Shown: positions 29,154 to 31,684, counted from the stretch's first letter. The stretch is DNA of 64,000 nt from a virus (IMGVR_UViG_3300020450_000008); one strand, 5' to 3'. Notes: generated from the letters alone by a model not told the origin. Translations and numbers: made by a program.

Positions 29154-29490
29154 AAGAGTCCGCAATCTTTCTGATAGAGAAAGAGATATTTTAGTAACTG
29201 ACTTACAAAAAACTATCGATATTGATTATAAATTTAATGAAAAAAATTCTATAGAAGAACTACAAAAACATATAGATAAAACGTATGACAGTCATTATTC
29301 AAAGGAAAAATTTCAAGCAGCAGAGTTCATTATAGACGGCGGTCATGGAACTGGTTTCTGTATCGGCAATATACTTAAGTATGCTCAAAGATATGGAAAG
29401 AAAGGTTCTAGAGAAGATGCTCGAAAAGATCTTTTGAAAGTGCTACATTATGCAATAATACAATTACACGTTCATGATCAAGAATTATAG
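29122..29490 (+). CDS. DUF3310-like protein
   Basis: SHY...GFCIGNILKYAQRYGKK...DLLKVLHY. Confidence 0.7.
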   Translation: MMTDYELKLDKRVRNLSDRERDILVTDLQKTIDIDYKFNEKNSIEELQKHIDKTYDSHYSKEKFQAAEFIIDGGHGTGFCIGNILKYAQRYGKKGSREDARKDLLKVLHYAIIQLHVHDQEL

Positions 29491-29498
29491 GAGATAAC

Positions 29499-29855
29499 AT
29501 GACAGAATTTAAGAACGGTGCAAGAAAATACGTATCACCAATGTATACACCAGTTATTGGTCCAATAAAAACTGGTTATGACGCTTACACAACACTACTT
29601 TCAGTAGAAAAGTCGCCACTTCGAAAAATGCCACCGATGGTTGGACATCTTGTATTCACAGTTTTAGCGTGGATGTGGAGTGGAATATTTGGACTTTACA
29701 TGGGAAGTTACATGATATGGGGAGTAAGTGCGGTAGGTCACATGCTTTTAATATCAGGAGCTTTTATAACCTGGCTTATATGGCAACAAGCCGATAGAGG
29801 AAATAGTGAAAAAGGATTCTACAACGGCAGAGGTGCTGGTGGAGAACATGAATAA
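29499..29855 (+). CDS. Hypothetical membrane protein
   Basis: Two hydrophobic helices; GGAG SD. Confidence 0.6.
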   Translation: MTEFKNGARKYVSPMYTPVIGPIKTGYDAYTTLLSVEKSPLRKMPPMVGHLVFTVLAWMWSGIFGLYMGSYMIWGVSAVGHMLLISGAFITWLIWQQADRGNSEKGFYNGRGAGGEHE

Positions 29856-29863
29856 AAAAAACG

Positions 29864-29892
29864 TTTACATTGTTTAAAAAATATGGTATAAT
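29864..29892 (+). promoter_or_regulatory. Early promoter of the ncRNA island
   Basis: TTTACA-N17-TATAAT. Confidence 0.75.
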
Positions 29893-29904
29893 AAATATAT
29901 TATT

Positions 29905-30266
29905 CGAACGGTGAAGCTGAGTTAAAGTAGACTGGACTCGGGGGCGGTACCCGACGGCTCCACCAAGAATACTGGCCCATAAGTAGCCTTCGTAGCGTCA
30001 TCCGGATGCCACCATTAAGTAGGTGGTTAGCAGTCAGACGACAAAGACAGTAAGATGTCTTAGGGTTTTAGAACGTGGCTTGGTTCTCCAGTATTCTTGA
30101 TGGGGCCGAAATAGGATCGACAGATATGGAGATAACGTGGAGTTCGACGGTTAATCGCGTCAAAGATTAAATAAACTAAACGCAAACGATGATTTTGCAC
30201 CTGTGGATTACGCCCTAGCGGCCTAATCGCACCGAGCCAGGAGGAGCTTGGGAACAGAATCCTCCA
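29905..30266 (+). ncRNA. ssrA: Circularly permuted (two-piece, alphaproteobacterial-type) tmRNA; outer ends approximate
   Basis: Acceptor piece ends TCGGG-GGCGGTA-CCCGA-CGGCTCC-A-CCA (CCA 29963-29965); coding piece starts GGGGCCGAAATAGGATCGAC at 30102; 7-bp acceptor stem with G3:U70; tag 30182-30226 = ANDDFAPVDYALAA*. Confidence 0.93.
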
Positions 30267-30270
30267 CGGA

Positions 30271-30476
30271 ATTTGGTCGACGGACCGAATAGTGTAGTGC
30301 AAGGAAACGCGTCTTACCAAGAGGCGTAACTTGATTGCTCAGGCGTGGTAGCCAGGTTCAAGGCCTAGCGGCTAAGAATCACATCACCATACCAGGTGGG
30401 AGTAAGTTCTGGGAGTTATGAGAGATGGTATCTTGAGCGACCCAGTTGGAGGTATACCCACAGTCCTCCCTACACA
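30271..30476 (+). ncRNA. Putative structured ncRNA (possibly manA-motif-like)
   Basis: GC-rich, no + strand ORF; helices ATTTGGTC/GACCGAAT, GTGTAG(30292)/CTACAC(30470), ACGC/GCGT, CTGGG/CCCAG, GGAGG/CCTCC. Confidence 0.5.
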
Positions 30477-30652
30477 GTAAGAACGATGCCTATGCTAATC
30501 TTTTAAAGTTTAAAGATTGGAGTTAATAGGTTCGGTTGAAAAAAATCGGTAAGATCGTTGGGGTGATGCCCTAATACATCCGCGGGAAGCCTATGGTTAG
30601 CTTCCCATCTTTATTTGAGTGATATATATTATTAATTTACTGGGAGATTATA

Positions 30653-30865
30653 ATGGCAAAGATTGGTGACGATATTAAAGAAGCAATGATAGCACACGCA
30701 AAAGGTCATATCGAAAAGCACAAAATGAATGTAAAGATTTATTTTCGAAATGCTGCAGGTATTGGTGGAGAAAAACATCCAGATGTTTTAGAAGCCATAG
30801 AACAAGAATTAGATATAGTTGCAAAGTACGATGATCAGATTGAGATGCTTAAAAAATATTTTTAA
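30653..30865 (+). CDS. Conserved small hypothetical phage protein
   Basis: AHAKGHIEKHKMNV...HPDVLEAIEQEL; GGGAG SD. Confidence 0.65.
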   Translation: MAKIGDDIKEAMIAHAKGHIEKHKMNVKIYFRNAAGIGGEKHPDVLEAIEQELDIVAKYDDQIEMLKKYF

Positions 30866-30868
30866 CTG

Positions 30869-31684
30869 ATGCGTGTACATAGAGCAGGATTGAAAGATAA
30901 GGAATGGGAAATTGATAGAATTACAAAAAAGATAGGAGCCTTCTATACTGAATCTAATTGGAGAAAACAAGAAGAGATAACCTTTACCAAACCTCGTGCA
31001 TTTAAAGAAACATTTAAAAATTTTTTATTCTATGATGTAATAATTTTAGCAGATCAACAACATGTTAATCATTGGAAGGCATGTAAGTATGCTTTTGACT
31101 ATTATTGTTCAATAGATAGAGATGTTGAGATAGTAACTTATGAAGAATACGGTTTAAATTTTCATCAGTTTTGCAAATTTGTAAATTATACTATCAAAGA
31201 TATTATGAGAGAAGATGCTAATGTATTTAGATATATGGGAGCCAAATACAAACATTATTTTGTACGGCCTTTAAAAAATAAAGAAGTACAAAAAACTGAT
31301 ACTGTTGTTTATTCTCTCATGGATTCTGCCTTTCTTTCTAGAGAAATCAATTCCGTAGAAAAACAAGTGCAGTTAGCTTTTAGAGGAATGGAGCCTGAAC
31401 ATCATCAAATATTTAGAGAAGCACTTAAAAATACTAATTGGGTTGATCTTGGAGATAGTAGAAGATTAGATGATGGTCCAAGTTTATTAGATAAATTAGA
31501 ACTTATAAGAAGATCTAATTTTTATATTGGAACAGCATGCAGTTGGTCGCAATGGGCTCGAAATGTTGACACAAAAGTTTACATAATTTATAATAGACGC
31601 CCGAGAGATCATAATCACGATATGCGTAATTTAGATACTAAAGATAAGTATCTTATTCTAGGTGAGTTAATGACGACATCATAA
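30869..31684 (+). CDS. Hypothetical protein, weakly glycosyltransferase-like
   Basis: Long ORF; C-terminal LELIRRSNFYIGTACSW recalls the GT9 region. Confidence 0.4.
   Translation: MRVHRAGLKDKEWEIDRITKKIGAFYTESNWRKQEEITFTKPRAFKETFKNFLFYDVIILADQQHVNHWKACKYAFDYYCSIDRDVEIVTYEEYGLNFHQFCKFVNYTIKDIMREDANVFRYMGAKYKHYFVRPLKNKEVQKTDTVVYSLMDSAFLSREINSVEKQVQLAFRGMEPEHHQIFREALKNTNWVDLGDSRRLDDGPSLLDKLELIRRSNFYIGTACSWSQWARNVDTKVYIIYNRRPRDHNHDMRNLDTKDKYLILGELMTTS

Follow-up and report, generated by a model that had tools for sequence, protein, structure and literature searches.

A viral permuted two-piece tmRNA gene with a conserved structured RNA in its spacer and an adjoining manA RNA

The viral DNA stretch IMGVR_UViG_3300020450_000008, whose whole length of 64,000 nucleotides (nt) is referred to here as the window, carries a gene for a transfer-messenger RNA (tmRNA) at positions 29860-30268 of the plus strand, and our analysis confirmed that this gene is circularly permuted and of the alphaproteobacterial two-piece type. 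The Rfam covariance model alpha_tmRNA (RF01849), suggested as a check in an earlier note made from the sequence alone, matched this region over its full length with 117.4 bits (E value of 2e-31; gathering threshold of 50). A second Rfam model, tmRNA_permuted (RF04321), also matched over its full length, with 104.1 bits against a gathering threshold of 47, and the agreement of two independent full-length models excludes chance as the source of the match. Between the two pieces of the tmRNA, the spacer contains a conserved RNA motif of about 110 nt, pseudoknotted and without an Rfam family, and a manA RNA follows the tmRNA directly. The parts of the tmRNA gene are given below, with the extents of the two pieces taken from the Rfam alignments.

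29900-29965, plus strand: acceptor piece of the tmRNA, 5′ end approximate
29904-29934, plus strand: 5′ strands of the P2 helices, within the acceptor piece
29938-29954, plus strand: T arm, with the loop GGCGGUA
29955-29961, plus strand: 3′ strand of the acceptor stem, pairing with 30102-30108
29962-29965, plus strand: discriminator and CCA (ACCA), the end of the acceptor piece
29966-30101, plus strand: spacer (intervening segment) of 136 nt between the acceptor and coding pieces
30102-30268, plus strand: coding piece, starting with GGGGCCGAAATAGGATCGAC at 30102 and containing the D-loop-like sequence GAAAUAGGAUCGAC
30102-30108, plus strand: 5′ strand of the acceptor stem, GGGGCCG, at the start of the coding piece
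30121-30147, plus strand: 3′ strands of the P2 helices, within the coding piece
about 30146-30170, plus strand: putative PK1, plausible by eye
30182-30226, plus strand: tag reading frame, with the resume codon GCA at 30182, the peptide ANDDFAPVDYALAA and the stop codon TAA at 30224
30232-30237/30246-30251 (S1) and 30240-30245/30260-30265 (S2), plus strand: H-type 3′ pseudoknot after the tag, including the conserved AACAGAA loop

The features listed in the earlier note are all present. The CCA-ending acceptor piece lies upstream of the coding piece, the two strands of the 7-bp acceptor stem are complementary, the alanine identity pair G3:U70 is formed by G30104 and U29959, and the predicted tag is read in frame up to its stop codon. 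This tag starts from an alanine resume codon, comprises 14 residues and has a hydrophobic, alanine-rich C terminus. The T-loop had been called deviant; its sequence is indeed GGCGGUA, which is nonetheless the consensus of the alpha_tmRNA model. A minimum-free-energy cofold of the two pieces reproduced the acceptor stem only, without the canonical layout of P2 and pseudoknots, and we therefore used the Rfam structure and covariation instead.

A 20-nt pattern from the tRNA-like domain matched at least 120 IMG/VR contigs, among which ARAGORN read tags such as ANDNFAPQGYALAA. Both pieces were extracted from 117 viral loci in which the acceptor stem is fully complementary, and the 101 distinct sequences among them were aligned with MAFFT; the same helices with slid partners served as pairing controls. 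The partner of G3 was U in all 101 homologues. The T stem was paired in 100% of cases, with up to four covarying pair types per position, and P2a and P2c were paired in 84% and 74%, respectively, each above its slid controls. Within the 3′ pseudoknot, pairing reached 82% in S2, where single positions showed as many as six pair types, and 74% in S1, compared with 42-59% for the slid controls. The tag ANDDFAPVDYALAA is common to five loci, namely the window and four contigs, which differ in their helices and spacers; its coding sequence varies at four codons, with five variants in all, every one of them synonymous. Synonymous-only change amid differing helices and spacers fits a translated tag. 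Spacer length among the viral homologues ranges from 8 to 499 nt.

The earlier note had treated the segment between the two pieces as plain intervening sequence, and here the analysis led to a different picture, since the spacer contains a structured RNA with the following elements.

29971-30092, plus strand: core of the spacer motif, as matched by covariance model R1
29967-29975/30088-30096, plus strand: motif P1, the closing helix
29976-29978/30063-30065, plus strand: motif P2
29985-29988/30077-30080, plus strand: motif pseudoknot
29996-29998/30038-30040, plus strand: motif P3, enclosing a variable insert
30044-30049/30056-30061, plus strand: motif P4, with the loop GUAAGA
30070-30074/30083-30087, plus strand: motif P5, with the loop GUGGC

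Five tmRNA spacers share one fold, made up of the closing helix, four further helices and the pseudoknot. In these five copies, 91.7% of the cells were paired and 15 of the 29 pairs were compensatory; none of 500 shuffles scored as high, and slid controls reached 36-44%. An alignment of 18 copies, none of them from the window, was 98.1% paired, with compensatory change in 16 of 27 pairs and slid controls at 33-38%. Model R1 was built from this 18-copy alignment, so that the window did not contribute to it, and it found a single copy in the window, at 29971-30092, over its full length (54.4 bits, E value of 7e-9). Across the loci examined, the model gave 49 matches, in 48 marine viral contigs and the window, and a pattern of the conserved loops occurred in 47 IMG/VR contigs against an estimated 3-4 by chance. 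The 10-mer GCCTTYRTAG was tried as a probe for the motif and discarded as too unspecific.

None of the 4227 models of Rfam 15 matched the motif in the window at E values up to 1, and in 19 motif-bearing loci Rfam reported only tRNAs. The motif likewise had no blastn match in 50,697 GenBank phage records; model R1 had none in 151 alphaproteobacterial genomes, a search that lacked a positive control and carries no weight. Copies of the motif occur in several contexts. About 19 lie inside tmRNA spacers, about a dozen lie some 15 nt before the Shine-Dalgarno site of a 73-amino-acid gene, several lie 17-18 nt before a tRNA (L186, L188 and L194, our labels for individual loci), and others precede further hairpins. 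The 73-amino-acid protein had no PHROG match and offered no clue to a ligand.

The spacer of the window is without a conserved open reading frame (ORF). In the spacers of L106 (188-481), L180, L009 and the OM43 phage Melnitz (L001), a Shine-Dalgarno-like site is followed by a small ATG-led frame, and those of L106 and L180 combine the RNA motif with such a Shine-Dalgarno-led small ORF.

The second structured RNA of the locus begins 2 nt past the end of the tmRNA model.

30271-30479, plus strand: manA RNA motif (RF01745), full length (model positions 1-192), 69.7 bits against a gathering threshold of 55.2, E value of 1e-15

The manA RNA has been described as a riboswitch candidate located in 5′-untranslated regions (5′ UTRs), with examples from T4-like cyanophages and marine metagenome sequences (Weinberg et al. 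2010, PMC2864571). In the window it is not placed in a 5′ UTR: the next ORF, 30653-30865 (phrog_1811), lies 174 nt downstream, and the interval contains three hairpins as well as a terminator-like stem followed by a U-rich tract. By Rfam, manA also has this place 3′ of the tmRNA in L003, L106, L109 and L125, and a nhmmer search placed it next to the tmRNA in 14 loci (13 viral contigs and the window). Among the 15 tmRNA loci that carry the spacer motif and have enough 3′ sequence, 13 have manA beside the coding piece; because the 15 loci are related, this linkage corresponds to perhaps five lineages and not to 13 independent events. Among the papers available, we found none that links manA to tmRNA. 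The idea that manA might be an obligatory tmRNA domain was rejected, as it occurred anywhere in only 2 of the first 50 and 3 of the next 50 (all sub-threshold) other tmRNA contigs. The sub-threshold matches in L070, L075 and L076 lie kilobases from the tmRNA.

L125 shows a weak match to the spacer motif just after manA. In L109 (3125-3815, minus strand), the order is promoter, tmRNA with the motif in its spacer, tRNA (glycine with anticodon ACC according to ARAGORN), manA, and a hairpin with a T-run that by eye reads as a terminator; the T4 late-promoter box TATAAATA follows.

These arrangements allow the locus to be viewed mainly as a processing or expression cassette for the spacer motif and manA, in which the tRNA-like fold serves to attract RNase P and 3′ trimming enzymes that release these RNAs, and trans-translation is secondary or dispensable. 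Such a role would agree with the spacing of 17-22 nt between the motif and the tRNA-type 5′ end downstream of it, found whether that end belongs to a tmRNA coding piece or to an ordinary tRNA, with the frequent adjacency of manA, and with the other cargo, such as Shine-Dalgarno-led small ORFs, carried in the spacers of widely varying length of related phages (Melnitz, L009 and L106). However, the tag is under peptide-level conservation, and G3:U70 and the 3′ pseudoknot are conserved as well. Furthermore, close relatives such as L004 keep the same tmRNA and tag with a spacer of only 26 nt and no manA, which means that the tmRNA is maintained without the cargo. We therefore regard this explanation as unlikely.

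Signals for transcription flank the tmRNA and manA. Assembled contigs of four metatranscriptome runs, drawn from two studies, were aligned to 29400-31100.

29864-29892, plus strand: sigma-70-like promoter of the T4 early type, TTTACA-17-TATAAT with an extended -10 element (TGnTATAAT), 11 of 12 consensus positions
30584-30616, plus strand: terminator-like hairpin, GGGAAGC/GCUUCCC around a 9-nt loop, with a U-rich tract behind it, recognized by fold and sequence and conserved in L003
30173-30545: RNA-library contig of run X15, 0 mismatches, depth 93
30175-30459: RNA-library contig of run X17, 0 mismatches
30310-30548: RNA-library contig of run X16, 0 mismatches
30102-30291: RNA-library contig of run X16, 2 mismatches

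The early promoter had been noticed in the earlier note, and our call of it is a consensus match. By eye, the same promoter arrangement precedes the tmRNA in L002, L003, L004 and L109. In L002 and L004, an exact T4 late-promoter box, TATAAATA, lies immediately 3′ of the -10 element and extends over the beginning of the tmRNA unit, and the window has a near match only; judging from this overlap, the tmRNA unit may be expressed both early and late. The hairpin at 30584-30616 likely ends the transcription unit of the RNAs before the next gene. A consensus terminator scan missed it because the loop limit of the scan was 8 nt. The RNA-library contigs cover the tag, the 3′ pseudoknot and manA, so that the underlying molecules span the 2-nt junction between tmRNA and manA. 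Their ends at 30102, about 30173-30175 and 30545-30548 are not readable as RNA ends. Coverage was near zero at about 29979-30074 in the spacer and in the flanks at 29514-29855 and 30597-31100, and we used it neither as evidence of excision nor as evidence against DNA carry-over. Contig joints that skip 129-135 nt were considered as spliced forms and rejected, since other letters stand between the two sides and identify them as short-spacer tmRNA genes of other organisms.

The window has a uniform G+C content of 33%, and nearly all of its ORFs lie on the plus strand. It encodes a T4-type DNA polymerase with 54% identity to that of the Kyanoviridae phage C48C1 and 47-48% identity to those of cyanomyophages, along with a gp41-like helicase, a thymidylate synthase and an endolysin; from these genes, the window is assigned to an uncultured marine T4-like myophage. 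L003, an independent IMG/VR assembly, has the same tmRNA locus with identical upstream and downstream genes, and DNA runs from five studies contained 70% or more of the words sampled from the locus. The locus is therefore not a chimera with host DNA, one of the events that the earlier note had named as fatal to its proposal. The tmRNA was compared by BLAST with 401 alphaproteobacterial genomes, and only the T-arm/acceptor region of about 32 nt was matched, in 172 genomes; the exception was phage-like contigs in one metagenome-assembled genome (MAG).

These data bear on the view that the gene is passively captured or decaying host DNA, left by imprecise excision or as an attP-like remnant, or an assembly chimera with host DNA. 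Islands and prophages are reported to integrate commonly at tmRNA genes (PMC4383910), and ssrA fragments in prophages have been discussed (PMC9004378). However, neither piece of the gene is truncated, a promoter of its own precedes it, and its homologues in at least 120 viral contigs have covarying helices. The shared flanks in L003, the occurrence in DNA runs from five studies, the narrow similarity to alphaproteobacterial genomes and the even G+C content of the surroundings likewise contradict capture or chimerism, which we consider highly improbable.

As stated in the earlier note, SmpB is not encoded in the window: a profile of four alphaproteobacterial SmpB proteins found none among the six-frame ORFs (best E value of 0.15). 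The Pfam SmpB model also found none in the complete 141.5-kb genome of Melnitz, and host SmpB is thus presumably used. The note had also expected the tag to point to the host class and had suggested a comparison with the tags of host clades, and this expectation failed. The exact back-translated tag had 0 matches in 185,579 species-representative genomes. A relaxed pattern gave two, both in contigs of about 35% G+C (L124 and L125) that have homologues of the window phage's genes and carry phage-type tmRNAs. They belong to MAGs labelled Rhodobacteraceae and Verrucomicrobiales, and the Rhodobacteraceae MAG yielded eight alpha_tmRNA matches; both look like phage contigs mis-binned into bacterial MAGs. 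Some alphaproteobacterial genomes of low G+C content have 12-residue tags, such as ANDNFAPVAVAA, with a shared ANDNFAPV start. The tag of the SAR11 phage HTVC008M differs (ANFNEYALAA), and Melnitz, the nearest relative, infects a gammaproteobacterium; with the tag absent from every cellular genome searched, the tag shows the ancestry of the gene and not the class of the host.

An RNA of this kind might also act as a decoy or inhibitor, tying up host SmpB or competing with the tmRNA of the host, and in this way block or re-route host quality control instead of supplementing it. Having no SmpB of its own, in the window or in Melnitz, a phage would have to compete for that of the host, and the tRNA-like-domain-only tmRNA of the mycobacteriophage DS6A has been reported to inhibit tmRNA in Escherichia coli (PMC4131195, PMC11915505). 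The lack of the phage tag in the searched cellular genomes would agree with such a function. A pure decoy, however, needs no tag, and here the tag frame, with its alanine resume codon and its ALAA end, is conserved and changes only synonymously, which makes the decoy function quite improbable.

We consider it likely that the locus encodes a functional alpha-type two-piece tmRNA that makes use of the RNase P, alanyl-tRNA synthetase (AlaRS) and SmpB of the host, and that its early unit carries two structured RNAs as well. Under this model, transcription from the early sigma-70-like promoter would begin at about 29900 and run to the hairpin at 30584-30616, giving a single RNA of about 715 nt. Host tRNA-processing enzymes would act on this transcript, with RNase P cutting 5′ of G30102 and 3′ trimming halting at the encoded CCA at 29965. 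The resulting acceptor and coding pieces would stay joined through base pairing in the acceptor stem and the P2 helices, host AlaRS would charge the molecule through G3:U70, and host SmpB would bring the charged tmRNA to stalled ribosomes. Translation would then resume at the GCA codon and append the tag, which ends in YALAA and in this resembles known ClpXP degrons. The phage would likely benefit in that ribosomes are kept free while host and phage mRNAs are degraded during infection; ribosome rescue during mRNA turnover, protection against host defences, for which the earlier note had suggested those that cleave tRNA or mRNA, and redirected proteolysis are all candidate benefits of the tmRNA. 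The spacer motif and manA would probably be released, or at least co-expressed, through tmRNA processing.

Several points weigh against this interpretation. ARAGORN, the other program recommended in the earlier note, reported no tmRNA in the window with default thresholds or with thresholds lowered to -ps80, and only pseudo-hits appeared at -ps70; it likewise missed the closest relatives, L002-L004, and its failure is a detector miss rather than evidence against the gene. In the Rfam alignment, P2a of the window holds a G-A mismatch. P2b and PK1 were 48-57% paired among the 101 homologues, near the slid controls, and PK1 by itself had 50-57% of cells paired, values for which alignment quality limits the test. 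The RNA-library contigs are silent on ends, strand and the existence of a single transcript, and DNA carry-over is possible. We infer the processing sites, charging, tagging, use of SmpB, benefit and function of the cargo RNAs from sequence. The fit of the RNA to host SmpB and AlaRS is assumed. Finally, in other contigs the motif stands directly before start codons, a position that suits a cis-regulatory element no less than a released RNA.

As a tentative extension of the model, which we consider possible rather than probable, the tmRNA gene may serve as a delivery cassette. In it, the excised motif, which elsewhere stands just ahead of tRNAs or at the 5′ ends of early mRNAs, would work together with manA as a linked pair of RNAs that are regulatory, sense a ligand or act as catalysts, and maturation of the tmRNA would set both free. 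Because the closing helix of the motif continues directly from the acceptor stem, processing of the tmRNA would free the spacer in the form of a stem-closed RNA, and the fixed distance of the motif from tRNA-type 5′ ends elsewhere fits release by processing. The copies directly before start codons fit a cis-acting 5′ element equally well.

Phage two-piece tmRNAs are of a kind already published; the structured spacer motif and the linked manA are new here. An early promoter precedes the two-piece ssrA of the phage Melnitz, and a glutamine riboswitch lies at the 3′ end of that gene (Buchholz et al. 2022, PMC9004378). The same study surveyed 18,146 phage genomes and counted 53 two-piece tmRNAs, mostly marine; in a set of 47 Melnitz-like contigs it counted 17. 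We reproduced the Melnitz arrangement with 106.7 bits for RF01849 and 52.8 bits for the glutamine riboswitch, RF01739. Melnitz, whose host OM43 is a gammaproteobacterium, is also a marine T4-like (Kyanoviridae) myophage and shares with the window the alpha-type permuted tmRNA, the early promoter, the lack of SmpB and a riboswitch-like RNA immediately 3′ of the coding piece. It is the nearest relative in the phage collection, with 71.8% identity in the coding piece and a tag, ANDNYVPVDYALAA, that agrees with ANDDFAPVDYALAA at 11 of 14 residues. However, the two phages overall are only distantly related, and the element 3′ of the coding piece in Melnitz is RF01739, whereas the window has manA there and no match to RF01739 even at E values up to 1. 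The spacers also differ, as that of Melnitz opens with a Shine-Dalgarno-like site and an ATG frame and that of the window is a structured RNA.

The two-piece tmRNAs of Alphaproteobacteria such as Caulobacter (Keiler, Shapiro and Williams 2000, as cited in PMC9004378; RF01849) have the same permuted order, GGCGGUA T-loop and G3:U70 pair, an AND-type start and an ALAA-type end of the tag, and a 3′ pseudoknot containing AACAGAA. They are chromosomal, with 12-residue tags seen, whereas the gene of the window is phage borne, encodes a 14-residue tag and has a much longer, structured spacer. HTVC008M, a T4-like marine myophage of Pelagibacter, also has an alpha-type permuted tmRNA (RF01849, 83.8 bits), but its tag is short, its D-loop sequence is different, and the locus examined contains neither the spacer motif nor manA. 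One-piece tmRNAs are known from mycobacteriophages of the Bxz1 group and from Bacillus phage G (Hudson et al. 2014, PMC4131195); these also pair a phage ssrA with the lack of a phage smpB, but the genes are of the standard nonpermuted form and the phages and hosts are unrelated.

The tmRNA gene itself is one more member of a published class and gives no host identification. Its neighbourhood shows that a segment usually held to be a disposable spacer is under strong structural selection, and that the spacer-motif family is tightly linked to manA, an orphan riboswitch candidate since 2010. The motif lies beside RNase P substrates, and manA lies at the 3′ end of a stable-RNA unit before a terminator-like hairpin, which argues that both may be stable processed RNAs rather than classical 5′-UTR switches, at least in these phages. 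The composite locus offers a testable handle on both RNAs and on the question of why phages keep permuted tmRNA genes with variable spacers.

The ORFs on either side of the RNA island, 29499-29855 (118 amino acids, apparently membrane spanning) and 30869-31684 (271 amino acids), had no PHROG match. The tail of the unit, 30480-30616, contains an AU-rich hairpin at about 30495-30520, a small hairpin at 30533-30548, a GC hairpin at about 30557-30575 and the terminator-like hairpin at 30584-30606. Part of this tail is common to L106, and that part is absent from L003. The RNA-library contigs of one study end at the small hairpin.

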